From NCBI RefSeq assembly GCF_036588685.1, contig NC_086375.1:89094001-89158000 (forward strand): 64,000 nucleotides of DNA, read 5' to 3'. Position 1 is the stretch's first letter, and every line of letters starts with the position of its first letter. Positions 22,945 through 64,000 of the stretch are shown here, piece after piece. The stretch is from Mytilus trossulus (taxonomy: Eukaryota). A program made the position numbers and the translations under genes. The notes under the pieces were generated by a model. It did no database searches. It saw nothing but the letters and a program-made list of their open reading frames with translations, and was not told the DNA's origin.

Positions 22945-23746
22945 TGGTTTTGGCTTTTAACTAGCTGTCAGTAACTGCGAGTACTCTCAAATCGTATTTT
23001 CTTGTTAATTCGTTCTGTTGATACTGTTTATAATGCTTTTTTGTTATTTTTTATTTATATGGATCTTGTCTGTACACCAGCTTTGATTATTTGTAATATC
23101 TTCAATTTTTCACTTATTCTTACAACATTTGTATAAACTTCAAGATTATAAAAAACCGTTTTTTTTCTAAAGTGAACATTGATTGGTTAAATATTTCTCA
23201 GTGATGTCCTGTGTTTGAATTTGTTTGTTAGCTTTTTGGTCATGAATGTTTGTCTCTAATATTTAATTAACTGTGCATTTGTATTCAGATATCGGAGATC
23301 AAATTTATTCGTTCATTGTGTAATCATACGTTTTTTGATTGAGTTAAGTCTGCCAATTGATATTTTATCGTATGTTTTTCTATGTTGTGATGTTCTGCTA
23401 TTGTTTCAGAAAAAGGGAGAAGGTTTGGATCCATTAAAACGTTTAATCCCGCTTCAAATGTTTGCACCTGCCGTAAGTCAGGAATCTGATGTACAGTAGT
23501 TGTCGTTTGTTTATGTAATATATACGTGTTTCTCGTTTCTCGTTTTGTTTATATAGATTAGACCGTTGGTTTTCCCGTTTGAATGGTTTTACACTAGTAA
23601 TTTTGGGGCCCTTTATAGCTTGTTGTTCGGTGTGAGCCAAGGCTCCGTGTTGAAGGCCGCACTTTAACCTATAATGGTTTACTTTTTAAATTGTTATTTG
23701 GATGGAGAGTTGTCTCATTGGCACTCACACCACATCTTCCTATATC
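22945..23746 (-). mobile_element. Long (~800 bp) copy of interspersed repeat family A inserted in a LINE remnant
   Basis: 23493-23746 is nearly the reverse complement of 61518-61771, and the insertion truncates the LINE zinc-finger frame at ...NNPNCVI. Confidence 0.75.
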
Positions 23747-25320: not shown

Positions 25321-25459
25321 TCATGAATGATGTCCTTTTGACATGACTTGGTTGGTATTTATGCATCAAGCTATCAGTTTTTCTGGTGCAGTTGGTTATT
25401 TCTGTGCGATTCGGATACAAAAGTTTTTTTTCCAAATGTTTCATTTTTGTGTGCCCTTG

Positions 25460-27409
25460 TGTTTAAGAAATAGTAAGGAGATAAAGGGTATTACTATAGA
25501 TGATACAGAGTTTGTAATTTCTCAATATGCGGATGATACATCAGTGATATTAGATGGCTCGCCAGAATCGCTCGATGCATCTCTTCGTGTTCTCCAATTG
25601 TATGCTGAAATCTCGGGACTTAAGATTAATATAGAAAAACAAGTGTTATTTGAATAGGTAGCAAAAAACATAGCAAGGATCAAATTTATGTAAAGTGGGG
25701 ATTGAAATGGGGCTCTAGTATATTTAAGCTACTTGGAATTACGTTTTCAGTCGACCTAGATAGAATGATTAATTTAAAATATAGGCCAGTTTTAGATAAT
25801 ATAGACAACACTTTTAAAAAATGGTCAAAACAGTATCTCACCCCCTTTGGAAAGATTACCATCTTAAAAACTTAAAAACTTTGGTCATAGCTAAATTAAA
25901 TCATCTGTTTCTATCTTTTCCTACTCCAGATGAGAATATGTTACGTAATTTAACAAATAAAATGTATGCTTTTATCTGGGATAATAAACCAGATAAACGA
26001 GATCTTGTATGCCAAGATTATTATAAGGGTGGTTTAAAAATGCTAAATTTAAAGGCATTTATACAAGGACTCAAACTTACATGGGTAAGACGTCTATATA
26101 ATTCGAATTCATAGTGGGTGAGATTAGTCTCTATTGTGGAGCAATTAAATTTAATGGAATTAAGTTATATTAGGCCTATTTAAAGGTCATCAAATACATT
26201 TTGGCAAGAGGTTTTTGATGCTTGGAAAACCCTTAATCAAAATAGAAAACCAAGATGTATTGATGAAATTCTATCGTATTCTTTATGGGAGGTAGAAAAC
26301 TTTAGAATTGGTGGTTCAAGAGTCTACTATAAAAATTGGGCAAATGCGGGAATTTGGACAGTCAAGATTTGTTAGATGACCAAGGCAAAGTTATGTCATT
26401 TCAAAATTTCCAACAATTATATCAATTAAGGCCAACTATTTTACATTATTATGGAATAGCGCACTCGCTTAATGAGGGGTTAAACATGATCAATATTGAA
26501 GTAAAGGAGAAAAAAAATCATGCAATACTACCTTTTAACATAAGTATCTTTTTTGAATCAAAAAAAGGTTCAAGGGAAATTTACAAAATATTGAAGGAAA
26601 AATATGTTACATTTGCTGCAAAAGAAAAAATGGGAGAACCATCTTAATATGACTGGTATTAACTGCAAACAAATACACACTTCGTGTACAAAATATAGTA
26701 AAAGCACTAAGCTTAGCTGGTTCCAATATAGAATTATCCATAGAATTTTGAGAACTAATTCACTACTTTACAAGATGAAAATAAATAGTAACAACATATG
26801 TACATTTTGTTAAGAAGGACCAAAGACCATAGAACATTTATTTTGGAGCTGTCCGATGGTCGCCAGTATCTGGCATGCACTAAACATTTGGATTTTTGAA
26901 ATGACAAATATTGAACTGCCTTTGAATATTATGATTATTTTATTTGGAATGTACGAAAATGTTAAATTGAATTTTGTTAAAAATAAGATTATTCTACTTT
27001 CAAAATACTATATTTACCGAACAAAACTTCAAGAAGTTGTGCCAAATTTAAATGCTTTAAAAAACTATTTAAAGGAACACTTGAATTAAGAAAAATACAT
27101 TTCATTTAAAAACCTCTCTGTAGAGGAAAATAACAAGTACTGGAGTCCCTGGGCCCCTATCATAGAATAAATAATAAATGTTAAAATTTGATTGAAAAAC
27201 CACTTATGTATATTGCAAGAACACATAAGATTTCAATGTTATAAGATATTTATTTATGTTCAACCTATTATTGCACCATCATACATATTAATTTGTTGTT
27301 TTATTATTTAATACTTCTTTTGTGTGAAAATACCAATCTGTATACCTTTGTTCATACATGTTGTGCTAGTCTATTTGTTACAATAAAGAAAATTCATCAT
27401 AAAAAAAAA
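25460..27409 (+). mobile_element. 5'-truncated L1/Tx1-clade LINE with pseudogenised ORF2
   Basis: ISQYADDT RT motif, SGLKINIEK, YYKGGLKMLNL, FQYRIIHRIL.TN...CTFC*..TIEHLFWSC zf-RVT. Stops and frameshifts; AATAAA at 27382 then an A-run at 27401-27409. Confidence 0.92.
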
Positions 27410-30382: not shown

Positions 30383-33095
30383 ATGGTAAGTTTATTAAAA
30401 ACGTTGTGTTAATGTTTATTTCTGTAACTTATTATTCTGGTTAATTATCAAAACTGCTTCTGATACTTGAGCTTAGTCTGTAGTAAATCTTCACAATAGT
30501 GGTCAGTTATATAAATTGTGATATTCAAATTACTTACATCAGTGCTACACATCAACAGAAAATCGGATAAAATCAATTAATTTTAGAAACAAAAAAACAT
30601 TGTTAACACTCAACTTGGTTGTTTGTTGATAACTGTATACCTCTAAAAGATTCATTGTGAAGTATTAATTTGTAAATACAAACCAGTATCCTCGAGGGTG
30701 TTTTCGTTTATTTTCTTATTGAGACGGTCACAAAAAACATGGGATCTAGATTTTTTTATCTTATTAATATAAGAAAAGAGATTGTCAATGAGACTATTCT
30801 CCAAAACAGATCAAATGACACAGAAATTAACTACTGTAGGTCATCGTACGGCCTTTAATAATGAACAAAGCTCATACGTCATAGTCAGCTATAAAATGCC
30901 TCGAAATGATTTGTGATATTTAGGACAAATTAGAAAGAAACATACTTTTTACCTGCCAAATAAGTGTTTTCAATTCATGCACAAGGATATGTTTGACTCT
31001 ATCTATTTTGTTGCATATATAAATAAGATGTGTATATTCTTCACTCATACCATCACAATAAAGTGATTCACTGGTTTATTGACATAATTTAATTATATCA
31101 AACTGAGGTTACTTCTCCTTTATTGAACAGGCTATGAGTTCCGATGCTCAGACATTATTTTAGAGAGTATATTGTTTTGTACCTTTTATCTCGACCACAG
31201 GGTAACAATTTATTTTTTTGGTGGAAGATAGATAGTCCCAGTCCAATGAAACTTTCTATAAGGTCTACACAGTTCACCCAATGAATTTTCATGGTAAAAC
31301 ATATACACTGTTATGAAAAATTCCTATGCACAACATTGCATTATTTTACGCTACTTTTTAGTTGATACAAGATGTGTGTATTGCCCTTCATTTTCTTTGA
31401 GTCTTACAGAGAAACTTCTTTGATCGTTCTCTGAATCATTGATATGTTATCCCTGCATTCGAACTGACATATATATGTATTTTAGTTATTGTATCTTACA
31501 TTTTATGCTGAGGTGATTTTATCCTAGCGTTACAGTACTATTTCACCTAAGTTTTGGTATGGTTTTTATATATATTTCTTTTCTGTATCTAACATAATTT
31601 TTATATCATTTATTACTCGCTTTATATAAAGAATTTTAATAAGATTGCTGGAACGGAATGTGCATTTTACCTCTTTCTTTTACTTTAATTTCAGAGGTAC
31701 CTACCGTTTATTCTAGTGGTGATTTGTAGTTTTGCTACCGTACACACGTGTCCAAGTTTGTGTACATGCATTGCAGATACAATATCATGCAATAACCGAG
31801 GTCTTACCGTTGTTCCCTCTTTCAGTAGTGCCGATATGTCAGGTGTCAAATTATTAGACCTAAGTCACAATAACTTTACTACGTTACCAGTGAATGCTTT
31901 TCCGAATAGTCATTTCGAAACACTCAAGCTAGACTATAATCGACTCCGGACACTACCAAATGGTACCTTTCAAGGTGTTGCTAGTGATATAAAGAACCTT
32001 GACTTAAGCAATAATGAGTTTTTAACCCTTCCAGACGCACTTGCGGCTCTAGATCACTTAATATCATTGAACGTGTCCAATAACTATCAAGGGACAAGTG
32101 ATATTAACTTGCAAAACAATGTAATGAGGGCCTTAGGGGATACATTGGAAGAGTTTACATTCGGTAGTATTAAACAGAAGGATTGGCCAAGAACTCTCAA
32201 CCATTTCCAGAACCTACATCGCTTAGAGATCACATCTCTACATCCGAACTTGATTATACTTCCACCAACAGGTTTCCATGGCTTCGAAACAACTCTTGTT
32301 GAATTGTCTATTCATGATACAAACCTGCTAACTGTTCCAATTGGTATTTCAAAGTTACGCAATTTACTTACGCTGAACTACGACAACAATCGAAATACTG
32401 GTGACAGTGGAATCCTTCTACAATCATTCCCGACAAGCAGTAATTCAAAACTTTCAACATTATCGCTAAAAGGCGACTCACTCACAGTTTTTCCTCTTGT
32501 ATTGAAATATCTTCAGAAATTGACCAAGTTTAGCATTGATAATAATCCTCTTGATTTCTTAAGCGAAACGTCTGTGGAGGGACTACATACTCTCCGTGAA
32601 TTAACAATAAGGAATTGTTCTTTGGAGCGAATACCGGCTGCTTTGGCCACAATCGCAGCATTAGGCTCTATTGACTTCTCATTTAATGCAATAGAGACGG
32701 TAGAGAAACGTGACTTACAAGGCTTCACCAATATACAAAAGCTAACTCTTTCAAATATGCCGCTGAAATATATTTCAAGGGACTCCTTAGCGCCATTGCA
32801 TAATCTACAAGTGCTTGAGCTAAATAATACTGCCCTCACAGAAGTACCACTTGCACTTAATTTCACAGATAGTCTTGCGAACGTTAGCATTGGACATAAC
32901 CGTATTGACTGTATGTGTGAAAACATGGTCTGGCTATTCCACAAGGCAGTCGAGTGTAACCCAACTGGAGTCCATGGGTTTCAGGTCATCGGTACATGTG
33001 ATACAATTCATGCCACTATTGAAGAATATTTGACGAATTTTGTAAAGAGATGCCCGGGCTACAAAGAAATCTGTAATATCATGCCGTATGGCTAA
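30383..33095 (+). CDS. Secreted leucine-rich repeat protein (LRR-2), join(30383..30385,31695..33095), ~467 aa
   Basis: CCA ATG|GTAAGT at 30383-30385 spliced to ttaatttcAG|AGG at 31695 gives MRYLPFILVVICSFATVHT-CPSLCTC (signal peptide plus LRRNT). LRR array, CMC..C..C cap, no TM; AATAAA at 33152. Confidence 0.92.
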
Positions 33096-33690: not shown

Positions 33691-36494
33691 AATGGCGCAG
33701 TTTAAAATTATCTCTCTTAAAATTGTCCCCGTTCTTTTTTACATGTAACTAGATATTCACAAGTATAAGTCATTAGCTGACATAACCTGTTACTTACAGT
33801 TCATTATCTTATTTAATCAGGTGTTTACAAGCATCTAAGCAGCAAATGATTCACTCGTTAAATAAAATCAAAAACCTTGATAATATGTTTGAGACAAAAT
33901 AATATGCAAAGTTATTTGAATGGTTATCAAGCATAAACAATATGTTTTTGAAAGCTTGGAAAATAAGATTAAATGCATGTTTAGTTTTGAAAACATAGTC
34001 TGAGAACACATGTCACATTGTTCGTGGTCCATCTTATTCATAGTTGGTTGTTGATTGATGCCATTATCTGGAAGAATCATAAGACAATAGTATTTTCAAG
34101 GTAACTATTCAATCACAAGATTTCACAAAATATTCTACACTGCATTACATACACATGAATATAAAATTGAGAATCAAAATGGGAAATGTGTCAAAGAGAC
34201 AACAACTCGACCAAGGGGAAGAAGTCTATGCATTTGTTAATGTACAAATTGGAATTAATTAGTACCTATAACCCTCCTCGTTTACGCATGTATTGAAGTT
34301 GTTTCTGGTGTATTGCATTCGAATTATTACCTATATTGACAAAAATCCAGCTTGCTTATATTTCTAGTATAGGATCATCCTATATTGTACTGCATGAACA
34401 TATATTTGTAAATAGATTATTATAATAAAAAATCATCTTTAATCTGAAATAACTGTTTTAATTTCTTGATGTAATAAAAATGAAAAATAATATTAATAAT
34501 AGATCATCTGCATTCCTTCAAGGTAATACTTATAAGAGATTACGTTGTGGTTAGAGTTAGAGTAACTATTCAACTTGTTCTTAACACATTATTGTGTGAG
34601 TGTGACAGGTTGCAAATATTCATAAAATAAATAAAATAAAATAAGACAATCATTGGACTCAACACCAATAAAGTATCTCAGGAAAGCCTTTTGTTGATTC
34701 GGCCATCAGAAGTAATCGAATCTCGCTAAAATTATTGCAACAGGTTTTTAAATTAAACATGCTTGAAGGGTCAAATTCAGGTTAAAATTACTACAATGGA
34801 GATGATATTCCTGAACTTAACTCATCTTCGATTGTCAGGTGGTCATTTAGAATTGGTATTTGAATTGGTACTTTTGTCCTTAAACTGTGGCATTTAGGGT
34901 TCATAGCAAAGACGGATTCAGAGAAGTACATCTGATCAATTCTGTAACATGCAATAAGTACATTTGTACAATGATGCCCGATTTAATTAGCACATACTTA
35001 CAACTTCTCGTCCAATCAAATTGCTGGAATTTGCCTTCTAATTTTCATATTACATACTTTTTCCGTGTACTAAGTAACTACGCATGAATGACCACAAGGG
35101 TAAGATTTCATTGTATCGTAATCAAGATATTGAAATACAAACTGCTACTGGCTATTTTGAAATAAATTTTGTGTTCCAAATTTAACTAAATAGTTTGTAA
35201 TTAGTTTTCAAACAGATTTTTAACATCCTACTAATCAATCTTTTGATCTTAATTTAATTTTGACTTTCATTTAAATAAAGAGTAATAATTATGGTGCTTT
35301 ATACCTTGATTACAGTACAACTCAATCTAAAATTTGTAATCCTTTATCTTCCATGCAATTACTTTGTACACAAAAAGAGTCAACCATGTTTCTTTTGAAG
35401 GGAAATTATTAATAAAGCAATTTGATATATTTAGTCATAAATTGGTCGATAATTGGTTGCCTAATGTCCAGTGACAAATATTTCATGCATATAAACTATC
35501 CACTAGACTACCTATGGGTACATACCAGGGGCAGATCCAGCCATTTTTAAAAGGTGTTTCAACCAAAGATGTGGGAGGGGGATCCAACTGTTTGTACACA
35601 TTCAAAAGCATTTTCAAGATAGTTTTAGATTTTAAGTGAAATTAAAAAAATGTTTTCAAGAATGTAAAGCTTTCACTGCAATTTAAGAATTGTCTGCTCT
35701 TGGTCAATTCATTTTGTCATCTTACCATGTAAACAAGTACATGTACAGTAAAACAACGCTTCGTTTATATCAATAAACATACTTACACCAGCAGCTACCT
35801 TCTTTACATTCTAAAGTCAAGGGCCTTTTGAAATCCCATTTTTACAATGATATTATAGTGAGTAGATTTACAAAACTACGTAAATGAGCTACATCCAGTC
35901 AGCCAAAACATATCAATAGACTAGTTACAGGATTACTCAAGTTGTAAATATGTGCTAAATTGGATATTGTATAGAAAGGCTATGAAAATAAGAGTTTGGG
36001 GCAAAGCCCCGCGCTCTAATTTTCATAGTATATACCTTTTCAAAATTCCTTTAACACATACATAATGAGCAGGGGTTGTTACAGACAAACGTTCACCTAA
36101 TCTGTTCCAGTCAATGGGATAATTTAGGTCGTCAATCAATGGCCACAGCCACACTGTTTTGAATATGATTCTATTGTAATCCTGGAAGTTCATATTATTT
36201 GTCATTGATTTTGCTTTCTTACTTATCCATAACGAAACAACCCCAGTACGATATACAATCATATTATGTACAGTTTGGAAAATTCAAAAATCGAATGTAC
36301 TGGAAACTTAGCACAATCACAAATTAACCTGATACAAATCTTGACATCCAGAGTTCTGCCAGTTGTTAGTGTATATCATGTTTGTGACAGAAAGATTCGT
36401 GATCACAATTGTCTTTATAATTTAAAATTGTTTCTTACTTGAATGGCACTAACTTAAGAACAATATTTTCTTTCAAATTGAATTCTTGTATGAT

Positions 36495-37092
36495 TCATTT
36501 CTTCTTTCCTTTCTTTGGTTTAATTTTTGGTTCTACGTCCTCATATTCTTCGCTTGATGCTATTTTTTCCTCTTCAAGTTTTAGATATAAGTGTGTTCTA
36601 CTTAGATGTTCCACCGGTTCTTCGTAGCCTAGCACTTCCAGTTCTTGGACATTCTGATAAGCGTCCGTATTTTCACTGTTATCCCTGCTGTTTATTACAC
36701 GTTGTTTTTTAATTATATCTTCATATTCCTTTTGTCCTTCATTACTGTATAAACTGCCAGTATGTTTGCCTGTTTGTTCGTCCTCCATAGCCACATATTC
36801 CATTTGAGGTTCCACGTTTTTGTCGTTATTCATATTGCTCTGGCCTTCCATTGGCATGTACTCTGCGTCAAGTGTATTGTCTGATATCACTGTATCCGCC
36901 TCGTTTTGATAAGTTGTACATGTATTTAATGACTTCTCTTCATCTTTATTACAAATGGTTTGCTCAGTGTGCTCATAATGGTTTGGCTTTGATTTCCGTC
37001 CAGTTTTGAAAACATCTTTGTTGGTGCTATTCACTTCTTCACTTTTGAGAGCTTCGTGAGTTGGAACGGGATCGAATCTTCGTCTATGAAAT
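36495..37092 (-). CDS. Receptor A exon 6: cytoplasmic Tyr-motif tail
   Basis: catttcAG acceptor, in frame with ORF 36495-37034; motifs YQNE, YMPM, YVAM, YSNE, YEDI, YQNV, YEEP, YLKL, YEDV. Confidence 0.85.
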
Positions 37093-40000
37093 CTGAAATG
37101 ATTTTGTTAATATGCAGGTTAATAATTTCGCTCCGATATGGTACCCTAAAACTGTTTATTTTCTATTCTGAAAAATAAGACTGTTTTATTGTTATAATAT
37201 CAGTTTGTCTTCTCGGTTGAATGTTTCCCATATTTCGCGTTATCGCGTTATCGATTTTGATCATTATCTTAAGTCAAACAGTGACGTGGAGTGTATGTGT
37301 TGTGAACCAATTGGGGAAAATATGAAGCAACACTCCTTATTCTTATCTAAAAAAAAAATTATTACAACTTGATTTTTTCTGACTAAGTATATTTTATATG
37401 TTTTCATAAATCCAACCAAAACTTTTATCCTATACATATGCATACCTTTTGTAGATGATCATTGTCATGGTAACTATAAAAACCATGAAAACTAAGATAC
37501 TTCCTGCCACTGCAGCTACTAATGTAACTAAAAATGTAATAACATTAAGTTACAATTAACCTTCTAAAATTGGACGAAGTTACAATTAACCTTCTTTTTA
37601 AAAGCGGATGATCTTTCATTGACAAAGAGAAAATCAAAATATCAATCACATATAAATCAAGTTTATGATATTAATGGAAATAATAGAATTAACACATACG
37701 TTTGTACTAACTCTATAGCCGACAATACGTTATTTCTCATTACAGAAGGCCGTACGGTTGCCTAACTTAGATCTACTTCATTTCTACCTTGGTGACAGTT
37801 GTCGCTTTGCCACATCTCCATATTTTGATAGAGTATGAGATACCTGTCATGTATAAATACAATAACGATATTCGTTTTAAGGTTTATGCAATTAACAAAA
37901 GTTATGTGTTCCACGACACCGCGATATTTTTTCGTTGTATGATGTCATCGTTTCATTTTTTGTAAAAAAAATAAAATTGCTGAGTTTGTCAGTCAAAATT
38001 GATTTCGTACGTGTACTATGCAGTACAACTTCTTAACATGTTCATCTGTTTACGTAGAGGACTACATACACTTCTGACACCTGCTCATACGTCAGGCGTA
38101 CTACATCGAAAGCGTAATTTAGCTGATTATTTTGTTTATCCATAACGTTGTACTTACTATTTATTGCGTCTTGATGATTGTTGTCTGTGAAGAATAGTAC
38201 AAATAATAGAATTATATACAACCAAAGATTATTCAGATTTTTTTGTGAAATTGATATTTATTCGAAATCTGATTATTCACAACTTTTAAAGAGCTATATT
38301 GTCCTGACGTATATCGTGGACTATGTGATACCCTTTAGATACAATTAATCCATAATTTATGTATTATTTAGGTCCATCAGCATCTGTTATAAATTAATAA
38401 ATTTACCTTTGGCTTTTGGGATTTTGCCAGTCCATATATTCCTTATCTGGATGACTTTTTATATTTTTTAAAAAGACAATGTGGTTAGGGAACAAGTATA
38501 CAAATTATATGTACCTGTTCCGATCAACATCCTCCTGATCCGTCTGAGATTCTACCTTATAATACTGAATTGACTGCAATCAAACGTTATGAACAGTACT
38601 GTATTTACCGCAGTAGAAAAGTTTGAAAATTGCCTGAAAAGCTGAACAAGAATGCATAATCCATTGTTCAAACTTTTCAGATCATAAACAACTCTAAATG
38701 AACGTTAAAGACTAAAATAATTTATTTGTGTATATGGAAAGTACACATACCGTCTTGAACTACACTGTACATTGACACAAATGTTGTATTTTGACCCCCA
38801 CATGTTTCATTTCCATTTCCTGGGCAAGGTGAATTACAGAATGTTTCGTTGATTTCAGTATGGGCTGGTTCTTTACTGCAGCAACACTTAGCGACATTAT
38901 GTGAGTCCAAAATATCTCCATCCACGTGACCCTTCAAAGAAATATATTGAGTGCTCTCTTTCTTTCTGTCATATTTCTAGTATATAACTTGAATTAATAA
39001 TAAATCAAATAATAGACTGCCTTTAAACTACTTCCTATACATATCATATTTTGTAACTTGGCCCCTGCTATTCTGATTTGATGCATTTCATGTAAAATTA
39101 TCAGAAAGAAACAATTAAATGTACCTTACTCAAATATAGTATCATAATATCCGATTGTAGTTCGTATGGTGACCAATACTTTTTACGTCTATGTCCTTTT
39201 GTTTCGAATGAAAACTTGTCTCTTTGGCAGTAATACCACATCTTCTGATTTCTAAACTAACTATAATTACTGCTTACAATAGATAACTTGGAAATGAAAA
39301 CTTCCAAATTTTGAACTTCTCTTTTCTTTGTAGCAACACTCAAACAGCGCCTGCATGTAAAGTATACATCTCCAAGGAATCGATAACCTTATTTGTATGA
39401 AGTTAAGTCTTTCGGAATTTTAGGTCCTCAAAGCCCTGTGGCCTTTTAATACATTTTATTCGAGCGTTACTGAAAGCTAGTTCAAAGCCTTTAACAACTA
39501 ATATAAAAGCCATACATCTGAATTATATAACATATAGATAGAGAGAAGCGTGAGAGCAAATTAAAATAAAACAACCTACCGAAGTTGCTGCCCAGGTATA
39601 ATGCTGTTCATCACAAAATTTAGAACACATTTCAATCGACATATAGCTACTCATAAAGGAAATGTTAGAATCAAAACCAGTGAAGCATCCATGAAATAGG
39701 GACAGGAAACCTGTAGTACAAAACAAAACAAAAACAGTTTGCAATCATCTTTTAATTGTTTAGTATTTGGAACAGATATATCATTTTTAAAAGGAGGTCG
39801 AGAGTAGCATTTTTTGTTTTGGAATTAGAATGTTGAGATTTTCCAAATGAATTCGTTATATGTACATAATATTGTAAATACAGGCAACAGTAGTATACCG
39901 CTGTTCAAACTCATAAATCCATGGACAAAAAACAAAATCGGTATAACAAACTAAAACCGAGGGAAACGCATTAAATATAAGAGGAGAACAACGACACAAC

Positions 40001-42846
40001 ACTAAAATGTAACACACAAGGAAACGGACCAAACATCCGTTAATCGTGCTATCTATATTATATATAGCTAGATTGGACTCCTTTTTCCGACGTAGTCGGT
40101 ATAGTTTCGGTTTGAGCACTTTGAACTTAAGGACGCTTCACTATGGCAACAGACTTCGCATGCTCGAAAATCTTTTCTGTGATTGGACAAAATGATGGCA
40201 TGGCGGGTGATTTGGTTGTGTTTGAAAAAACGTCTCGAAAATTATATCGTGATGGAAAGCAAGTGAAAAACTATAAATATTTGAACTAGATTTTTCAAAG
40301 ATTTATATTTTTATTAAAATAATTGTTTCTCCAATAGCTCTTTGCATCCATGACAGCTGTTTATTCGGGACAATAATATAATTATATAATTTTTAATTTA
40401 AACTTTGTTGTACGAACGTACATGACTTTTAGAACGCACCTATGCATCTAAGATTTCCGCGGGCTTTTGGTGAATGTAAACAGAAAGATACTACTTATAC
40501 TACCAATAGTTTCTAGCTTTGTTAACCATGAATTAAGTTTAATGTAAACAGTAGTAAATGTATATTTGGTTTTTTTATTTGTACTAGATTTTTTGACAAA
40601 TAAAATATTTAGGTGTCATCACAATATTCTTATATATTATTGCCTAAATATAACCAGACTTAGGGAGCTACCATTTGATTTTTAGGGGGGGTGGGGGGTG
40701 GGGGCTAGGATGACAAATTTTGTCCTGCATTTTTTTTAGCTGTAATCTCTGTCCTGCCTTTTTATCAAGCTTTCACTTTGTTCGGTCCTGCCTTTTTTTT
40801 TTTTTTATCCTGATTTTTTTTTTTTGCAAGTGTCTCATCCTGCCTTTTTTTTTTACTAAAAACTCCTGTCCTTCCTATTTTTATCAAATTTCATCCTAGC
40901 CCCCCCCCCCCCTAAAAATCAAATGGTAGCTCCCTTAGTAAAGAATTTCTTGTAGTTACATTCAGATGGAGATTGTATTAAAGAGGTCCTGCATCATTAA
41001 GTCATTGTGCTTCTGAAGGTTAACGAAATGATAGTTTTAAACATATACTCAAATTTAAATACGTCGGATATCTTTTTTAAAGATAGTTCTTGTTTATCAG
41101 TAGGGCGAGATTGAATGTTTTGTTCCATTGGGTTTGCTCAATTTCCTTTTCTCAGTGGTCGAGTTTGCAAGGTATGCATCAGTGGGATTGAACTTCGTTT
41201 TATGATTCGGTCAGTCTTTATTCATCATGAATTAACTGCTGCTCACGATAGTACCTAGCTTATCAAATTGGCGACTTTGCGTTAAGCGGTATTGCCCTCC
41301 TTTTATCAGTAGCGGAAGTTGGTTAGTAAACGTTTGATAAGTTGCATGCTGGGCGTGGAAATTGTCGAGCAAGTTCATTTTCACTTATATTGCATTGAAT
41401 GTTTTCTCCTTTTAAGAATTATACGCAATAGGGAGGTTTCGCGTAAAACGATATTTACACGCAAGCAAAATAGAGAGTTATACAATGGCGGAAATTGACA
41501 GTGTGACCTTGCAGCAGGCTGCTAAAGGAACACACTTTTGCAGGATGAAAGATATAAGCCAAAAAAACATATATAGGCTAAACGTTAGCCGCGTCGTCAA
41601 TTATTTTCAATTTTTGTTGCGAATTTATTTTTTCCCAAAAAGTGACTGAGGGGCAACTGCATCCCTTGTCCCTATCCATCTAGTTTGAAACAAAAGAGGG
41701 GCAAAAGATATCAGCCAAACTTATAAATAGAAAATAAACTGACATTGCCATGTATAAAAATTAAAAAGACAAACAGACAAAAAATAGTAAAAGAGACACA
41801 ACATAGAAAACTAAATTAAGCAACAAGAACCCCAAAAAAAATTGGGGTGATCTCAAGTGCACCTCAATTTATATCCCTGAAGTTTTTAGATAAAAAAAAA
41901 TTTCTTGATATTTAATATGCTTTACATCAGGAAGTTTGAAGGTTACATATATCCTTTTCCAGATATAACAATCAGTTTGTTAAGCTTTAGTTGAAAGAAA
42001 AATGTCATACAAATCCGTGAAATAGGTCATATATGTAGCATTTATAATAAATAGTCTATATTTTTGGACTGAAAATTTCCATATTATCATGCATAGTCTG
42101 ACATAAAGTCAAACTTTATTTATATACCGTAGTCCGTGTTTTGATAGACTGAAGAAAACAATTCGAAGGGGAATCGTCTTTCTCTTTACTCTATTTTCAA
42201 AGTTTAATAATTCAAACAAATCTAGTAGAAATAGGACTTCTCTTGACATTTCACACCTTATTTGTAAAGAAGGCTGATTGATTGACTTTTGCATTACAGT
42301 GAACAATATTTTAAGAATTTGTAGGACGGAAAAAAATGAAAATTAAAGTTGCTTCAAAGTGAATTGACCAGGATAAAAAGTGGAGATTAGGACTACCACA
42401 GGAAAAATGAAGACATGGACTGGAATTGCTCTTGCAACATGGCACCCATGTAGACCTATCAAAGAGCGGTTGCAACAGTTCCCGAATGTGCAGAGACCGT
42501 GGCATTCACAATACACAAGCCATTGCATTTCATATTCTGACAAGACGTGGCTTCGTATTTATACATCCTGTACAACCAAGACGTCTCTCTTTTGACAGTT
42601 TTATTCCCAGATGAGAGTATCCAGTGAAGACATAATATCTATACCTAACCAAGCCTTTTTTATTTCAAAGGAAAAGTGGCGTCGGCTACAGTAATTAGGA
42701 ACATTACGTAATCTACTTTTTTATTCTTTTTCTTTTAAACTGACAGTGATAACAATAACCCTAAATACAATACTATACTCACATTTAGACTGTCCCGTAT
42801 AAAAAAATAATAATATCAAAGCAACAACATAACCATTCCTTTCCAT
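36495..42846 (-). CDS. WSC-domain type I transmembrane receptor A (~375 aa): complement join(42846-42783, 39710-39580, 38976-38751, 38184-38158, 37527-37446, 37092-36495)
   Basis: All introns GT-AG with phases 1,0,1,1,2; total 1128 nt in frame. SP MERNGYVVALILLFFYTGQSKC; WSC FHGCF..MSIEMCSKFC..YTWAAT..CCCS..CNSPCPGNGNETCGG..SMYSV; TM LVAAVAGSILVFMVFIVTMTMIIY; Tyr-rich acidic tail. Confidence 0.85.
37446..37527 (-). CDS. Receptor A exon 5: transmembrane helix
   Basis: ttttAG|...TLVAAVAGSILVFMVFIVTMTMIIYK AG|GTATG. Confidence 0.85.
38158..38184 (-). CDS. Receptor A exon 4: 27-bp microexon
   Basis: cttcacAG|ACAACAATCATCAAGACGCAATAAATA|GTAAGT, phase 1-1; same size and position as in paralog B. 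Confidence 0.7.
38751..38976 (-). CDS. Receptor A exon 3: WSC C-terminal half
   Basis: CCCS..CNSPCPG..CGG..SMYSV; donor G|GTATGT. The acceptor at 38976 is the nearest in-frame AG (less certain). Confidence 0.8.
39580..39710 (-). CDS. Receptor A exon 2: WSC N-terminal half
   Basis: actacAG|..FHGCFTG..MSIEMCSKFCDEQHYTWAATS|GTAGGT. Confidence 0.85.
40663..40934. mobile_element. PIF/Harbinger-type MITE in intron 1 of receptor A
   Basis: TIR GGGAGCTACCATTTGATTTTTAGGGGGG / CCCCCTAAAAATCAAATGGTAGCTCCC; TTA TSD at 40660-40662 and 40935-40937; internal TCCTGCCTTTTT repeats. Confidence 0.9.
42783..42846 (-). CDS. Receptor A exon 1: signal peptide
   Basis: ATG..MERNGYVVALILLFFYTGQSK T|GTGAGT; phase 1 matches exon 2. 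Confidence 0.75.
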
Positions 42847-43429
42847 AATTATCACAATCGAGTTTTTTCAGTTTAAAGTCGTCAAAACACACCAATATCG
42901 TGTTCCTTTTGGAGTGTTTTAAAAATAACCTATTCGACAAAAAATTGATATATTTATTTTATTGCGATGTCACCTATTGCGTGTGTTGTGTATAAAAGGT
43001 AAATTTGTAAAACGCTAACGATACTGGTATGGTATCCGGTCAATTTAAGAAAGTTTTGGAGAATGTAAGGTTTTATTAATTAATGATATATTCTCGTTTG
43101 TTCATTATAAAAGATATATAATGTATATGTTGTCAAAACTACTACGGATTCTCTAGACTCTGGGTGTGTCTCCCTATGGTCAGGTAATTATTGCAGATCT
43201 TTATAAAGTCCATTTAACCATACAATTTAACAAAAATTAAATTGAATTTATGTATAAAGAAAAAACGCGTCAAATGAATTGTGTAAGTTTAACGTTTCTG
43301 ATATATAAAGTATGTGACCTTTCTAATAGATAATATAGATTAGTATGTCAATGATGTTCGGTTTTCGTTTGACCAAAAGGTCAATAACACTATGTACAAA
43401 AGTACGTTGACAGTAGACTACGATGTCAT

Positions 43430-43630
43430 ATGTGGTTTTGTGTAAGTGTCAATATTCCTAATATGTGTACACTACTTTATTTGTAGTTTCTGTTAGAGTG
43501 TCATTATTCCTCATTTGTGTAGACTACTACGTTTGTAGTTTCTTTTAAAGTGTCAATATTCCTCATATATATGCACCACTTTATTTGTAGTTTCTGTTAG
43601 AGTGCCAATATTCCTCATTTGTGTGCACAA
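43430..43630. repeat. ~50-bp tandem repeat, ~4 copies, interrupted by nested insertions
   Basis: TTTGTAGTTTCTGTTAGAGTGTCAATATTCCTCATTTGTGT..ACTACT units; the motif resumes near 44436. Confidence 0.75.
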
Positions 43631-43734
43631 AATAAAGGCAACAGTAGTATACCGCTGTTCGAAATTCATAAATCGATAGAGAAAAAACTAATCCGGGTAA
43701 CAAACTAAAACTGAGGGAAACGCATCAAATTTAA

Positions 43735-44125
43735 CGTCGCTGGGCTTCAAATAACATTTTTTGTCGAAAAAAAATTTGGTCAAAATACATGCTTCAAAAA
43801 AGTGTCGTATGTGACTTTGCAAAACTTTTATAAATTGCAGTGAAATAAAAACTTTGACATTTCTTAATTACTTTCACAGTAATAAAGAAATGTACATGTG
43901 TTTGATTCCAAAAGCCATTATACATTTTCATACAACATTTCGGAACCAAACTTAACAAACAACTGACATTGGAAATTTTGTAACATGTCTTATTTCAAAT
44001 GTTTAATTTGGTCTAATTGTATGCTTCTTTGGAATATCAGAGATGTCATCCAGCCAAGACTATTTGTGTCAAAAAGTATTTTTAGCCACAAAAGTCATAT
44101 ATGACATTTTGGAAGCCCAGTGACG
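43735..44125. mobile_element. MITE nested in an inverted family C repeat
   Basis: TIR CGTCGCTGGGCTTC / GAAGCCCAGTGACG. The host sequence CGCATCAAAT..ATAAG..AACTACGACAC rejoins across it. Confidence 0.75.
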
Positions 44126-46173
44126 ATAAGAAAACTACGACACAATACAATACAATACAATACAATATTTTTATTGTCAATCAAGGACGCCCTAAAAGAG
44201 CAATATAATTACAAGCAATTTGTTACAATGATTATTATTAATTCTTAATGATATGACACACAGACACACAACACCAAAAAGTAACACACACAGAAACGAA
44301 CTATAACGTAACAATGGCCATTTTCCTGACTTGGTACAGGTCATTTTATGAAAAAATGGTGACAATGTTAATTATTACATTAAATTGACAACATTACACG
44401 ACAGGGCTACAAAAAATAAATGGGAGAAAATATTTATTTGTAGTTTCTGTTTAAGCACCAGAATTATTATCTTTGCAATCTAACTGTTGATGAAGATGAT
44501 TTAAATTATCACAGGAATGCTGTCTCTTTACTGTGATGTCGTTAACCGATACTGCTTTGTATTGATCTGATGAGTTAAGCCTTTTCCAAATGATTTTTAT
44601 AGTTTGTTCTCATTGTGTGCTATGTCAACTTTAAGCAAAGGAGGATTGAAAATGTTTAACCACGACAAATTGTATAATGGCTTGTCCTAAATCATGAGCC
44701 TGTAGTTCAGTGGTTGGCGTCGGTTCATGTCAGTCATATTTAATTTTCGCGAATTGTTTTGTAATAAAACAGGCCGAAAGTTTTCTCAGTTGCATTGCCT
44801 AGAATTAGCATGTCGGGGTCTTTTGTAATCGATTATACGGTATGTTGAGGTTTTTCTTTATTTTAAAAAGTGGTACGATTGCCTATAACTGCTTTCATCC
44901 ACTTAATTTGAATATGAGTACAAATGAGACATTGCTTCGACCAAATAAAATGTGTAAAAAGTAGATTATTAGTCAAAGAACGGATTTCAACACTGATCCC
45001 ATCATCAACCCGAACATCAGGCTATAATTATTATAAAGGGCCCAAAAATGGCTGGTGAAAAACAATTCAACAAGGACAACCTACGGTCTAATTGATATAA
45101 AAACGAGAAACACTTATCAACCACATCCACAAACGACAACCACTGAACAAGAGCTGCAACCAAATGATGCGGGGTTAAACGTTCACCATAACTTGAAATA
45201 GTTTTGTAACCTTAAAACATAGAAAGACAAATGCCCTAAATTCCTGATAGTTTCCATTTGAGCATTTTAACTTTTTCTTGTATAACCACAATCGTGTAGT
45301 CATTACGGATAAGATTTTATCGACCCAATTTTAATTTTAACGACATTTGATCACTCATCTTTGACTTCGTGCAGGAATGTTATTGCCAGACCATACGCTG
45401 AAAATGAACATTTCTGACGAGATATATTGTCGTTGGTGTGTGGTGTTTATGTAGTGATGCTGCAGAGGTTAAAGACAGGAACATATTAAGAGATTCAGTC
45501 GTTGTCATTTTATTTTATTTTTAAATTGTATTCCTCCACGAAGTTGAATTGGTTCTTTTAAATAAAATACATCCAAGGCAAAGTATCACAAAATATTTTT
45601 TTTTATCATTTTCTCTCATTTTCGCCATAACTAGCACGTATTTTAAATACAGTAACACATTCATTATACACCAATCAATCATGTTAGTGTTATACACAAG
45701 GACAATGGCTTCCTTTTCGTAACTCGAATTTGTCAAAAGAAGTAACATCATGATTTCTTTTGAATTAACATAATGAATTATTTGTGTTGTTCGTTTTATC
45801 TGCACACAAGTCAAGTATTTTTAATTCGTCCTTCGTCTTTTCTGTACATTTGTCCGGTTTCTTGTTCTTTCCGTATGTTTGTCCCGTTTTTTGGGTTTTT
45901 TTTTTTTTACATTTGTCACGTTTCTTGTTCTTCTTGTATGTTTGTCTAGTGGTTTTTGATTTGTCCGTTTATGACTCCTTGTTAACATAATAGGATAGCT
46001 CTTTTTCTATCCGCTATTTAACACACTCCTAAATGATTTGTCTATCGTTATGATTGATATTTTTGAGGGAATGAACTTGTTTTTGGTTCAATTCAGATAT
46101 TCAAAAGAATTGCATTGGCAAATAATTGTAAGCAAAACAATATCATGATGCTTATTTCTAGTCTTTTCAATGT

Positions 46174-46765
46174 TTACTGTGACATCATAAATTCATATTC
46201 TTTCTCTGTCTTTTCAAGAACTTGTGTATCACTTTTGATGGCATCTTTCTCAGAGTAAGCATTAAGCTTTGAATAAAGATGTGGTTCGCTTTCTGTTCTC
46301 ATGGGGATTTCATATTCTTGAGAGTTTTGTTCGTCAATGTTGTAATACAGCTCAACATTGTCATTTGACTTCTGATTTAAATTTCTTTCGACTTTATTAG
46401 AGTTTTCAATAATATTTATATATTGCTGGTTAATTTCGTTCCTGTTTGTATTTCTGGCAGGTCTATCCCTTAAGGTTTCCTCCACGGTTTCATATTTGAC
46501 GTCGTCTTCGTCATCAGTTTCAATCTTCATCTCTGATTCATCAGTACATTTGTTGATCGACTGATTAGTTTCACTTTTGTTCTGATATCCAACAGTCTCA
46601 TAAAGTTCCCTTTCGCTTATATTACTATTACTGTGATCAGTATCGACATAATAATTAAGCTTTCCTTTATTATCTGATTTCATGTTACGTGACTTCATTT
46701 CATTGTTTTTGTTTAATATCAAACTCTTACATTTAATGTTAGATGCTGTAGAACATGTTTGATAT
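46174..46765 (-). CDS. Receptor B exon 6: cytoplasmic Tyr-motif tail
   Basis: ctttctttcAG acceptor in frame with ORF 46174-46722; motifs YETV x2, YQNK, YINI, YYNI, YEIP, YSKL, YEFM. Confidence 0.85.
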
Positions 46766-49700
46766 CTGAAAGAAAGTGAGAAAATGAAGAAACAGCAGTG
46801 ACTGAAAATGAATAAGGTACTGAAACAGAACGTTCACCCTTATTCATATATCTTTTTTAGTTTCTTCCTCTATTTCTTTCTAAATTTACATAATCCAGCC
46901 CAGAAATATTGAAATAGAAGATGGTTTACATGTGTTTGATTTTGATTTCATTTTGATTTTATATTATGATATTGTAATGCACTATTATATATTATTATAA
47001 CATTGTCATATAAACAGGAGATTTGACTAGGCGTTAAAAAAAGGTTTAATCCCCTATTTGTTCTAAATGTCCTGTATCCAGTCAAGAATATGACAGTAGT
47101 TATCAAATAGCCCGTTTCTAAGTATGTTAGCATTTTCTTTTGTTGCAGTTTAGTGCTTCTGATATTCAGTTGTAACCCGGTTTTGTTTTCCCTTAAACGA
47201 TTTATACCTTATGAACAGCGGTATACTAGTTTGAAAGTTTTCTAATATTTTGTTGATATTCTTTAAAAATGAGGGGAAATATTGCCGTTTTTGGTTTATA
47301 TATATGTTATATATTATACAATTTTGTAAATTTCCAGTAACAAATAACCCAGGTTTCGTTGACCACCCTGCACTGTGACAGCGACCTAGACAGTGTTCGA
47401 GTGATAAATTATTAATTTCTAACTATTTTCTATCATGTTTCTTACCTTCTGCAAATAATCAAAATAACAACGGCTACCACCATGACACAAATAACTGCAA
47501 AGATTGCTCCTACCACTATACCAATAGTATTGCCTGAAGTAAATACGATTACTTCAAATATTAAGAAACAACATACACGGATTCTTTCGCATCAGTATTT
47601 AGACTTATACCTCGAATTTGACATACACAGTCATCTCAGTACGAGATTCTATGACATACGAGATGATTTTTGTTTTGAAATTATCGACTTCCCCATATTA
47701 GTAGCACTATACTAACTTCACCTACACATGAGATATACATTTCCAAGCTTATTCGGTGTTCAGGTTGCTGCAGATACTTCTCCGACTTTCTTAAACGTCA
47801 TTTTATAAAATTTACTGTTTGCAAAAGTATAAATTATTCTAAATAATAAGAAAACCCTGGCCGTATTGTGCACGACTTTTTTTTAACTTTGGTCCTCGGT
47901 GCTGTTCAACTTTGTACTTGTTTTGGCTTTCAAACTTTTTTATTTGGGCGTCTCTTATATTTGACTGTGAATTCACATTACTATAAGACGTGCCACGTTA
48001 CTTTTCTATCCCAAGTTCATGTATTTAGTTTTGATGTTATATTTTTTTTTCACATCGGATTTTGTCTAATGCCTATTTCGTTTCTGTGTATGTGACATTT
48101 TAAAGTTGTGTCGTTGTTCTCCTCTTATATTCAATGCGTTTCCCTGAGTTTTAGTTTTTACCCGGATTTGTTGGGGGTCTTTTTTTTTATCGATTTATGG
48201 GTTTCGAACAGCGATGTACTACTGTAGCCTTTATTTGTACAATTGACCAAAAATATGCCATTTCTATTTAAAACAAAGCGTAGATGGAAATCCGAAAAAC
48301 AAGATTCGGTAAATGCCTGTTGTTTCCTTGGTTGATAAATTTCATAAAAAGTTTTATTTTATCAGTTTTTATGAACTTTACCCTGTTTAAATGTACCTTG
48401 GAATTCGATATTTTGAAAAATTGTTTTTTCTACAATATGTATTATGACATCGTTCAAAGTGCTATGACTTATAACTTTATTTTATTGTTTTCCGTGCATA
48501 CTTATAAACAGGATATTATCATTAAAAATCACTTACGATTATTATGTCCTGTGTTCTTGTAACCTATAAAACATAATTATTAGAATGGTTATTTTTCCCT
48601 ATAAACTCTTATATTCTTCTCTTCACACTACACAAAAGAGAAATTTTCTACAATAATCTTTGATATGAAAACCAAATCAGCTCCCAACAAAACATAAGTT
48701 GCTATAAAGCAAATGATGTCACTAATATGTATACTTTAATGCTTGAAAATTTCGTAAAAAGGGAAATAAATAAGACAATAAATAAAAAGATGACATCTTT
48801 ATGCTATCAACGACAGAGCTTCACTTCTACTAATTACTCTCAACCAAAAGTTGAACTGTTTGGGTATATGCTTTTGATTTGTGTCAAATAATGCAGTTTC
48901 CCTGTGGTGTGTTGTTTACAAGATAGACAGAAAAAAGGTTTATCTATATATTCAAAGAGTAGTTTGAAAATACTCAAAAATGATTATCAACCGGCGTCGT
49001 ATCCGCTGATCCCTTTACACACGAATAAACTGTAAAACACGTAGTCAGCTGCTTCCAACGTCATTTGACACTATTTATGACAATAAATATTAATGTACAT
49101 ACCACCCATAGCTATACCATAAACAGAGAAAATTGTTTGGTTGTAGCCACCGCATATTTCATCCGGACTTTTTGGACATGGAAAACTGCATAAACTTTCG
49201 TTCACTTTATTCATAAGAGTTTCATTACTACAACTACAAATGATATATGCCTCATAAGCATTTGTCAGAAAAAGTGCGCCAGTTATCTTGATCTAAAATT
49301 AAGAAAAAACAGATTACTAATATTTATGAAGTTATATGAATGTTTCTGTTAAAAGTTCCAACCTAGATTTTTATGAGAACAAAACATAAATTAAAATATT
49401 GAAGACGTTTGATTATACCAGCACTGCAAATGATCATACTGAAGTTATGTATGAATTTATACAATTAAAAAAGAAAAAATCATATCACAGATTATCATAC
49501 AATTACATGGCACAGACCATATTTATCTTTCAACAAATCATGAATATTTTATAAACTGATGCAGTGTTTATATCATTTTATTGACAATTTAATGACTATC
49601 CAGTCTTAAACTGTTTCAAAAGTGTCATCAATCAACTTATTGGTAAATGGTTACTTACAGATAACGCAGCCAGGCTATAGTGACCTATTTTACAATATTC

Positions 49701-50901
49701 TATACATATGGAACTGGACATAAATGTTTTATTTACATACGAGATATTTTCTTTAACACTCATGTAACATCCATAGTACTCAAAACTTGATCCTGTTCAA
49801 AAGAAATATAAAAAATCATAAATGAATATTGTTCCATTTAAAGTATTTTTTACTACACTTTCTTTTTCTCTGTTCCCGATAAAATAGTGAACAGCAAAGT
49901 AATATTTTTTAATGCGTTAAATCTTTTCGTTTTGTTGTCTCGGTTTAAGTACCGATTCCTGTTTGTACAGTTTGCAATGAGTCACATGTTTTATAATTTT
50001 GTTCCTTTCCCACTAATTTAACGATTGGCATTATTTAGTGCTGCAGTCCGACTACACCAACACTCAATTCAAATTTGATTTGCGAAAATATAGGACAGTT
50101 GGCATCGTTATTTGTTTTTCATACTTTCTTTGTGTATGCATGATGACAGTTGATATCCATTCGTTAGACGTGTTTGGGCTGTTGATTTTTTCCTTTGATT
50201 AGGGACTCTACATTTTGAATTTTTCCTCTGAGTTCAGTTTTTTTATGATTTTATTTTTTCGATACAGATAGCCGTTTTATTTGTATTTATTTTTCTCCTA
50301 ATATTTTGTCCTTTCCGGTATTTTTGGCGGCGTTGGCAGATTTCTAGTGGTTCTTATACAATTTATTTTCAAAGTGTCTGGACTCGTACTGCATGTTGTA
50401 AGCAATACAGAAAGCGTGTGCAGCAGGTTTTGGCATGTTTTATCGTCTTTAACGTTAGTTGTTCTACCACGGAAAGATGAGTGCTACTGGTTGACCGACA
50501 CATGGCCATCATAAACAAGGTGTATGCATATGACTACATTACATATAATTTATAAGATATCCTAAGAATAAAAGAATAGCACGCAAATGTTTAAATTATT
50601 TTTTGTCTAATACGTTGAACCGGATACGAAATAAATAAAATAAGATAAGATAAAAAATTGAAAAGGCGACACCAAGTCGTGAATTTCATGGGATCAACGA
50701 GAAAGTAGCAAAGACCTAAATATTTAGACTGGAGGAAGAGTTTATGTATTTCTATGATCCATCAATGATAAGCCTATTCTTTTGAATTCAACTATAATCT
50801 GAGACGTACATTTATAAAGTAGTGTAAATTTATCCAATCTTACCTTGTACGAAAATTACACAACATAAGTAGAACGTACACAACTTGAAGATGAAAGTCA
50901 T
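46174..50901 (-). CDS. WSC-domain type I transmembrane receptor B (~362 aa): complement join(50901-50844, 49792-49659, 49292-49103, 48563-48537, 47533-47446, 46765-46174)
   Basis: All introns GT-AG with phases 1,0,1,1,2, identical to A; 1089 nt in frame. SP MTFIFKLCTFYLCCVIFVQG; WSC YYGCY..MSSSICIEYC..YSLAAL..CSCS..CSFPCPKSPDEICGG..FSVY; TM IGIVVGAIFAVICVMVVAVVILIIC-RR; Tyr-rich tail. Confidence 0.87.
47446..47533 (-). CDS. Receptor B exon 5: transmembrane helix
   Basis: tacttcAG|..NTIGIVVGAIFAVICVMVVAVVILIICR AG|GTAAGA. Confidence 0.88.
47575..47800 (+). mobile_element. Penelope-like RT fragment (intronic)
   Basis: YLDLYLEFDIHSHLSTRFYDIRDDFCFEIIDFP followed by frameshifted ..TSP...IYISKLIR; RT C-terminal signature. 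A smaller piece lies at ~39310-39385. Confidence 0.7.
48537..48563 (-). CDS. Receptor B exon 4: 27-bp microexon
   Basis: ttttatAG|GTTACAAGAACACAGGACATAATAATC|GTAAGT, phase 1-1. Confidence 0.7.
49103..49292 (-). CDS. Receptor B exon 3: WSC C-terminal half
   Basis: taattttAG|IKITG..CSCSNE..CSFPCPKSPDEICGGYNQTIFSVY..G|GTATGT. Confidence 0.85.
49659..49792 (-). CDS. Receptor B exon 2: WSC N-terminal half
   Basis: gaacAG|..FEYYGCYM..MSSSICIEYCKIGHYSLAALS|GTAAGT. Confidence 0.85.
50844..50901 (-). CDS. Receptor B exon 1: signal peptide
   Basis: CAA ATG..MTFIFKLCTFYLCCVIFVQ G|GTAAGA. Confidence 0.8.
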
Positions 50902-63821: not shown

Positions 63822-64000
63822 CTGAAACAAAATGTTTGATATAAATAATTACTGAACTAACATACCGATCAGTATAGCAGAATTCATAACCACTATTGTG
63901 TTGATATCTGCATCGTTTTTGAAAATGCTGAAAAAGTACTCGAACTCATTTACACTGTGTAAAGTGTAGTAAGTAATAAAGGGGTTTCATATAAAAAGAG

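Follow-up and report, generated by a model that had tools for sequence, protein, structure and literature searches.

Two tandem WSC-like receptor genes of the mussel Mytilus trossulus share a conserved three-tyrosine block in predicted docking tails

The window analysed here is a 64,000-nucleotide stretch of Mytilus trossulus DNA (contig NC_086375.1, positions 89,094,001 to 89,158,000). It carries two head-to-tail tandem paralogues, genes A and B, which are read from the minus strand. Each gene has six exons with the same intron phases, all introns are of the GT-AG type, and the proteins are 360 and 362 amino acids in length. Both proteins show a predicted signal peptide, a divergent WSC-like domain that forms an ectodomain of ~110 residues, one membrane helix and a polar tail of ~197 residues.

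In gene A, exon 1 (42783..42846) contains the start codon and the predicted signal peptide and matches the N-terminus of database proteins P0001-P0003 and P0026. The two halves of the WSC-like domain are encoded by exon 2 (39580..39710; Pfam WSC E 0.00037), which matches the same four proteins, and by exon 3 (38751..38931; E 0.001), which is found in contigs. A 27-nt stalk exon follows (exon 4, 38158..38184), and then exon 5 (37446..37527), where the predicted transmembrane helix has a hydropathy peak of 2.79 at residue 135 and is the sole confident AlphaFold segment. Exon 6 (36495..37092) encodes the whole cytoplasmic tail of 198 amino acids, with 10 tyrosines, and the stop codon; there are contigs that end at the 37092 splice site, and the tail lies within P0025.

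Gene B follows the same plan. Its exon 1 (50844..50901) supplies the start codon and a predicted signal peptide and agrees with the N-terminal ends of P0014 and P0016. The WSC-like domain is divided between exon 2 (49659..49792; Pfam WSC E 0.0011, with splice joints) and exon 3 (49103..49292, found in contigs). The stalk exon is again 27 nt (exon 4, 48537..48563) and is defined by contig joints, AG/GT ends and an open frame. Splice joints also delimit exon 5 (47446..47533), with a predicted transmembrane helix whose hydropathy peak is 3.51 at residue 146, and contigs cover exon 6 (46174..46765), which encodes the whole tail of 196 amino acids, with 13 tyrosines, and the stop codon.

Splicing was read from contigs of four public runs over positions 36200-51100; that runs X1 and X2 represent RNA is a guess only. 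All five introns of gene B are joined at GT-AG borders in X1 and X2 contigs and four of them in X15, and one 2611-nt contig covers B from upstream of the start codon to 44851. A 3′ UTR of ~1.3 kb is seen in one contig (44851-46173, minus strand). For gene A, two X16 contigs run from exon 3 into exon 6 across 109 intervening letters, the combined length of exons 4 and 5. Exons 1 and 2 of A rest on the 360-amino-acid database proteins P0001-P0003, and the joints of introns 1 and 2 are not among the matches listed. The RefSeq-named M. trossulus proteins P0025 and P0026 correspond to residues 149-360 and to the first 134 residues of A, respectively. The RefSeq annotation thus splits gene A in two, LOC134711128 (a read-through after exon 4) and LOC134712778; the contigs and the other species favour one gene of 360 amino acids. 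A frame artefact or a non-coding open reading frame is ruled out by the splicing and by annotated orthologues.

With the WSC Pfam profile (PF01822), P0001, P0016 and P0021 score 25.8, 22.3 and 22.2 bits over model positions 1 or 2 to 82, values that are below the gathering cut-off of 27.8. The ectodomain match covers almost all 82 model positions (E 1e-05 to 2e-04), and database labels for P0001, P0021 and P0022 read WSC domain-containing. The tails are polar, with 65-70% D/E/K/R/N/Q/S/T/G/P, and have neither a hydrophobic segment by hydropathy nor a Pfam domain above cut-off. Mean AlphaFold pLDDT values of 31.8 for full-length A and 34.3 for its ectodomain are both uninformative, and therefore it is from composition that the A and B tails are judged to be likely disordered. 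A PDB sequence search gave one match, at E 0.68, which was disregarded. The ectodomains are better conserved than the tails: between A and P0001 and between B and P0016, 98/104 and 99/107 ectodomain residues are identical, vs 171/198 and 169/196 tail residues. Such a pattern is unlike that of receptors under diversifying pressure outside the cell.

A tblastn search of the window recovers A and B only, with no third copy. Three single-exon LRR genes of ~465 amino acids flank the receptor pair, at 20321-21718 (minus strand), 31689-33095 (plus strand) and 62448-63848 (minus strand). Their proteins have hydrophobic N-termini without an obvious membrane helix, and possibly are secreted LRR-only proteins. 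A degenerate tandem repeat with a unit of ~31 bases lies at about 55950-56750 and gives recurring peptides in all minus-strand frames. High-copy interspersed repeats are found in introns and intergenic regions (39182-41169, 41667-42163, 43158-44648, 47631-48127 and 50116-50612), with a contig depth of hundreds- to thousands-fold. Broken open reading frames at 23745-27089 are presumably the remains of a decayed non-LTR retroelement, and those at 57664-59608 are taken by us to be a decayed DNA-element-like gene.

The three-tyrosine blocks that are the subject of this analysis are both in the terminal coding exon of their gene. In receptor A, the block is at 36576..36659 (minus strand) and consists of Y307 (YxNV), Y318 (YExP) and Y331 (HLYxKL); in receptor B, it is at 46264..46347 (minus strand) and consists of Y306 (YxNI), Y317 (YExP) and Y330 (HLYxKL). 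The tyrosines, termed Y1, Y2 and Y3 here, are spaced by 11 and 13 residues in both proteins. Translation of the minus strand over these two intervals reproduces exactly the 28-residue peptides of the original prediction, and the gap-free consensus that it proposed, YxN[VI]xE-x5-YExP-x4-S-x2-HLYxKL, matches both window sequences. A further EYE near the C-terminus of both tails is also present, 14 residues from the third tyrosine in A and 26 in B. The best gap-free 28-residue window between the two tails has 12 identities, a value reached by 1/1000 shuffles of tail B. The description of the tails as otherwise hard to align needs correction, as they are colinear end to end. The local alignment score is 144, compared with a maximum of 108 in 5000 shuffles, BLASTP finds 43/149 identities (E 2e-06), and more tyrosines are in register upstream of the block.

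A-type proteins were found in M. edulis, M. galloprovincialis, M. coruscus and M. californianus, and B-type proteins in M. edulis, M. galloprovincialis and M. coruscus. In three species the A-type and B-type accessions are consecutive, an indication of an old tandem pair. Two sets of tails were used for counting, one of 12 (six A and six B tails) and one of 13 full tails that includes P0029. Left out of the 13-tail counts were P0024 (which stops before the block), P0030 (which breaks after Y1) and P0025 (identical to window A), together with the partial or near-duplicate sequences P0004-P0012, P0015, P0017-P0019, P0022, P0026, P0028 and P0031.

With the A tail against proteins of 344-2000 amino acids, homologues were found in 1/965 candidates, with the B tail in 3/75, and with a full-length profile in 11/4511, where all named matches are from Mytilus. 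A nine-tail profile searched against 1.84 billion representatives gave five matches at E up to 0.001, all of them homologous tails; the 28-residue motif alone would probably fall below the threshold of this whole-tail profile. The protein searches found no named homologue from oyster, scallop, clam or gastropod, which does not prove absence because low-complexity tails lose signal fast. Among metagenome contigs, 594 pattern matches were obtained and none was confirmed.

One of the five matches is P0029, a partial protein of 183 amino acids that begins near the end of the membrane helix and matches the tail profile at E 3.7e-17. Its identity of ~34% to either paralogue (55/161 vs A, 53/158 vs B) makes it a third lineage. 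P0029 matches the full original consensus, including the E, the S and the HLYxKL, and the fixed pattern occurs in 0/200000 shuffles of its tail. The proposed pattern predicted an unseen homologue. It should be pointed out that P0029 is not wholly independent evidence, because the search profile contained the block. A second protein, P0030, matched through an upstream block alone (E 8.7e-06), is identical to P0029 at 90/105 positions and breaks off after the first tyrosine; thus the homology does not depend on the three-tyrosine block. By eye, the C-terminal 22 residues of P0030 resemble what its upstream block would encode on the reverse strand, which suggests an inverted assembly chimera, and its N-terminus resembles a translated intron, a hint that the tail has an additional intron in that organism.

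A check of the orthologues for lost motifs or altered spacing did not refute the proposal, as YxN[VI]-x7-YExP-x9-YxxL is kept in 13/13 full tails, including P0029. In its relaxed YxxL form the proposed consensus holds in 12/12 A and B tails, but two of its elements are not invariant. The strict pattern that ends in YxKL is found in 9/12 tails (K is replaced by T in three B tails), and the x4-S element is found in 10/12 (S is replaced by G in two A tails). Over the 13 full tails there are 21 invariant columns, nine of which are within the block (Y, N, Y, E, P, H, L, Y, L). The invariant block residues are the motif residues themselves, and the linkers differ between lineages. Together these data support the view that the block is a selected motif cluster and probably the best-kept part of the tail.

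The original prediction also spoke of a fixed geometry. As an observation this stands, as the spacings of 11 and 13 are identical in 13/13 tails from three lineages, while the linkers that flank the block vary (22, 24, 25 and 26 residues upstream; 14, 21 and 26 downstream) and the distance of the C-terminal EYE sites from the block is not fixed. Selection for the spacing is another matter, and the indel count is compatible with chance. In three MAFFT modes the alignment has 15 distinct gap blocks, or 9-10 sites after merging, none of them inside the 24 residues from Y1 to Y3, and the chance probability of this is 0.14-0.31. Other gap-free stretches of the tail alignment are 41 and 28 columns long, and an upstream tyrosine pair 8 residues apart is fixed in spacing as well. 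Among the anchors tabulated, linkers of up to 13 residues are all fixed and longer ones all vary between lineages, and length alone could account for this.

The block is one part of a wider array of 10 tyrosines in A and 13 in B that also bears YxxM and further YxN sites. In the A tail, 9/10 tyrosines have N at +2 or M/P/L/I/V at +3, a count found in 1/20000 shuffles; in the B tail the figure is 8/13 (256/20000 shuffles). Over five A sequences with five Mytilus species labels, 10/10 tyrosines are invariant vs 115/179 other residues (Fisher p 0.014). The B orthologues keep 10/13 tyrosines vs 111/183 other residues, which is not significant (p 0.19), and one of the lost sites is a YxN. The A tail has two YxxM and three YxN sites, and both B and P0029 have a C-terminal YxxM, which in B is YEFM (46186-46197, within exon 6). 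The first YxxM of A, Y240 (YMPM; 36849..36860, minus strand), is a predicted PI3K p85 site that is absent from B and P0029; the second, Y261 (YVAM; 36786..36797, minus strand), aligns with Y257 of B, which reads YETV. The 8-residue pair consists of Y277 (YxNE) and Y285 (YEDI) at 36714..36749 (minus strand), and is gap-free with the pattern YxN-x5-Y[EIM][DN][IV]. Both of its tyrosines are present in P0029 and in the M. coruscus-type B proteins P0021 and P0013; the first is lost from window B and from the B proteins of M. edulis and M. galloprovincialis. The C-terminal EYE site of A is Y345 (YEDV; 36534..36545, minus strand), which forms a loose ITAM-like pair with Y331. No PxxP is found in window A and B. 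A lysine-rich patch at the C-terminus of A (36498-36524, minus strand) is basic in P0029 too and absent from B; it might tether the end of the tail to the membrane. A also fits a KxKxx retrieval pattern, and P0029 does not.

A non-canonical immunoreceptor cassette had been proposed for the block, with its YxxL likened to an ITAM or ITIM half-site. The ITSM consensus is TxYxx[V/I], and it is found in 0/12 tails. The ITAM consensus is Yxx[I/L]-x(6-9 or 6-12)-Yxx[L/I] (PMC9546547, PMC9052152). In its strict form it too is found in 0/12 tails, as Y2 has P and not L/I at +3. A loose ITAM that allows V, YxxL-x10-YxxV from Y331 to Y345, is present in 6/6 A tails and 0/6 B tails and reaches beyond the block. 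The hemITAM, [E/D]3xYxxL (PMC12582321), is likewise seen in 0/12 tails. The ITIM pattern [I/L/V/S]xYxx[I/V/L] is found within the block in 1/12 tails (P0027, at Y1), with Y3 carrying H at -2 in all tails; outside the block it is found in 4/6 B tails, at the YET[VL] site. These counts over 12 tails lead to rejection of a canonical ITAM or ITIM identity, as the consensus sequences are given in PMC9546547, PMC12582321, PMC6994640 and PMC9052152. A stand-alone cassette is not supported either. In the whole-tail profile search, where the motif alone would probably be below threshold, the block was met only in homologous tails (the five matches among 1.84 billion representatives), and it is among other tyrosines that are equally well kept (10/10 in the A orthologues).

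The best explanation, to which a probability of about 60% may be attached, is that the block is the most conserved core of a predicted multi-site SH2 docking tail on a kinase-less WSC-like receptor, comparable to Gab/IRS proteins or to transmembrane adaptors. The trigger would be a ligand bound, or receptors clustered, via the WSC-like domain, upon which a non-receptor tyrosine kinase would phosphorylate the likely disordered tail. Y1 (YxN[VI]) would recruit Grb2, Y2 (YExP) adaptors of the Crk/Nck type, and Y3 (Yx[KT]L) an SH2 domain of the SHP2, PLC-gamma or Syk type; the YxxM sites elsewhere in the tail would recruit PI3K. The partners named for Y3 are putative, and Y2 resembles the Vav site of CD19, a likeness not used as evidence. 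A literature search for YEEP with CD19 and Vav found no paper. All SH2 partner assignments for the A and B tyrosines use vertebrate consensus rules, in which YxxP sites bind Crk/Nck and YxxM sites PI3K (PMC13435814), and YxN sites bind Grb2 and YxxM sites PI3K p85 (PMC13694759).

Language-model neighbours of the membrane helix plus tail are poxvirus A36 (0.85), SCIMP (0.84), and LIME1 and GAPT (both 0.78); all are below the 0.9 line and serve as leads only. With the whole protein, the ESM Atlas gave one molluscan cluster at 0.80, which is uninformative. A separation of ~10-12 residues between phosphotyrosines has been hypothesized as the minimum for two adjacent SH2 domains, and avidity over 120 residues is also reported in the same source (PMC13681993). 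The spacings of 11 and 13 are near this minimum and deletions would thus be disfavoured, yet short linkers escape indels by chance too. Several points count against the docking interpretation, among them the non-significant retention of tyrosines in B. Simple SH2 rules do not explain why Y3 is always preceded by H-L, nor the frequent S, and the block has its Grb2-type site before its Nck-type site. Vaccinia A36 was sensitive to the order of its Nck and Grb2 sites, with a weaker actin output when Grb2 came before Nck, and insensitive to a lengthening of the linker (PMC9333988).

Three other explanations have to be weighed. In one of them, the likeness of the blocks reflects nothing more than their origin by gene duplication, or a conversion tract, and no particular constraint acts on them. 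In its favour, the two genes are tandem duplicates that agree in their six exons and intron phases, and chance could account for the absence of gaps. At the DNA level, the two 84-base modules are identical at 44/84 positions and use the same codon at 5/12 shared residues, and blastn of one tail exon against the other gives no significant match; this is evidence of conservation at the protein level, not of conversion, and recent gene conversion is rejected. In addition, 9/21 invariant columns fall in 28/145 gap-free columns (P 0.006, with the window picked after the fact), and the third lineage, P0029, retains the same residues. Plain ancestry is thus largely refuted for the residues, and is highly improbable overall. 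It is also possible, if distinctly unlikely, that the block is mainly a trafficking or non-phosphorylated element, in which HLYx[KT]L would act as a sorting signal of the YxxL type or be bound as a short linear motif by one folded partner, with the upstream tyrosines part of the same surface. The tyrosine-based sorting consensus covers YxxL/V/I, which the site matches, and H-L-Y-x-x-L is invariant in 13/13 tails, more than a simple SH2 rule requires. A sorting signal does not explain why Y1 always has N at +2 or why Y2 is followed by E and P, nor does it account for the YxxM sites and the enrichment of motif contexts over the whole tail.

The third alternative retains the idea of a spacing-constrained cassette, a non-canonical immunoreceptor motif read by a tandem-SH2 enzyme, with Syk/Shark across Y1-Y2 (11 residues) or Syk/SHP2 across Y1-Y3 (24 residues). 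The constant block spacing next to variable flanking linkers speaks for it, and the x7 between Y1 and Y2 is inside the ITAM range (PMC9546547). SCIMP recruits Syk via the non-ITAM tyrosines Y96 and Y120, which are 24 residues apart, the Y1-Y3 distance (PMC9052152). Activation of SHP2 depends on linker length (PMC10231330, PMC7078208), and oyster CgIgR is reported to signal via ITAM and Syk (PMC6994640). Against these points, P at +3 of Y2 leaves no strict ITAM in 12 tails and H at -2 of Y3 leaves it neither an ITIM nor an ITSM; the no-indel result is not significant, gap-free blocks of at least this length and a fixed 8-residue linker are found elsewhere, and the block appears on no unrelated protein in the whole-tail profile search, where the motif alone would probably be below threshold. 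Tandem SH2 binding is also described as spacing-tolerant (PMC9052152, PMC13681993). A constrained cassette is therefore considered rather unlikely. Slightly less likely again is a bolder form, in which a mussel family of WSC-domain receptors signals via a new motif, YxN[VI]-x7-YExP-x7-HLYxxL. Its tight 11 + 13 packing would be kept by selection because a tandem-SH2 enzyme (Syk/Shark or SHP2) together with an adaptor recognizes the motif as a single unit. The motif would then be a molluscan counterpart of the ITAM, with the other sites (the PI3K YxxM and the C-terminal EYE) having diverged between the paralogues.

With respect to the docking-tail interpretation, several known systems offer comparisons. 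SCIMP, LIME1, GAPT, LAT and vaccinia A36 are similar to A and B in having one helix and a polar non-catalytic tail with several tyrosines in SH2-type contexts, and no sequence homology to the transmembrane adaptors or A36 was found in the profile search of 1.84 billion representatives. The pTRAP criteria include a non-catalytic multi-tyrosine tail, which A and B have (9/10 and 8/13 tyrosines in motif context and no tail domain above cut-off), and a short leaderless outside part, in place of which A and B have a predicted signal peptide and a WSC-like ectodomain. Kremen and the fungal Wsc sensors differ from A and B in carrying different domains or a long S/T stalk. SCIMP has three tyrosines for Grb2, Csk and SLP65, and two of these tyrosines are also used by Syk (PMC9052152). 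Gab1 and IRS1/2 resemble the A/B tail in their YxxP, YxxM and YxN sites and in distal tyrosines that could take SHP2 (PMC13435814, PMC13694759); A has the YMPM and a second YxxM. The likeness is an analogy only, as the Gab/IRS proteins are cytosolic scaffolds (Gab1 with a PH domain, PMC13435814), whereas the A/B array is fused to a receptor-like protein.

Oyster CgIgR, Hydractinia Alr and Botryllus FcoR are, as A and B, type I membrane proteins with tyrosine-motif tails and often with clustered genes, and FcoR has non-canonical paired motifs at a near-constant spacing of 29-33 (PMC12582321). These receptors differ from A and B in having Ig-type ectodomains and canonical ITAM, hemITAM or ITIM sequences, whereas A and B are WSC-like and lack the canonical motifs. 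An oyster study (10.1101/2023.01.19.524809) counts WSC among the carbohydrate-binding domains. This label and the flanking LRR genes are no more than suggestive of an immune link. No mussel WSC receptor with such a tail was found in the mostly non-subscription literature covered. PMC4581086 has a single table entry, and PMC4704728 is unrelated. A and B seem to be an undescribed and seemingly narrow mussel family of WSC-like proteins with a familiar design, the kinase-less receptor with a multi-tyrosine tail, and for that reason general interest may be limited.

The observation itself is real, conserved and expressed. Two paralogues and a third lineage pinpoint the selected residues in a fast-changing tail, which makes the design of Y-to-F and linker-length changes easy. 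Molluscan tyrosine-motif receptor signalling is known from few cases, e.g. the oyster CgIgR-Syk system, and A and B provide a small, expressed example. If the spacing proves functional, the pair would allow one to ask, in a natural system, if the spacing of phosphotyrosines in disordered tails matters besides their order.
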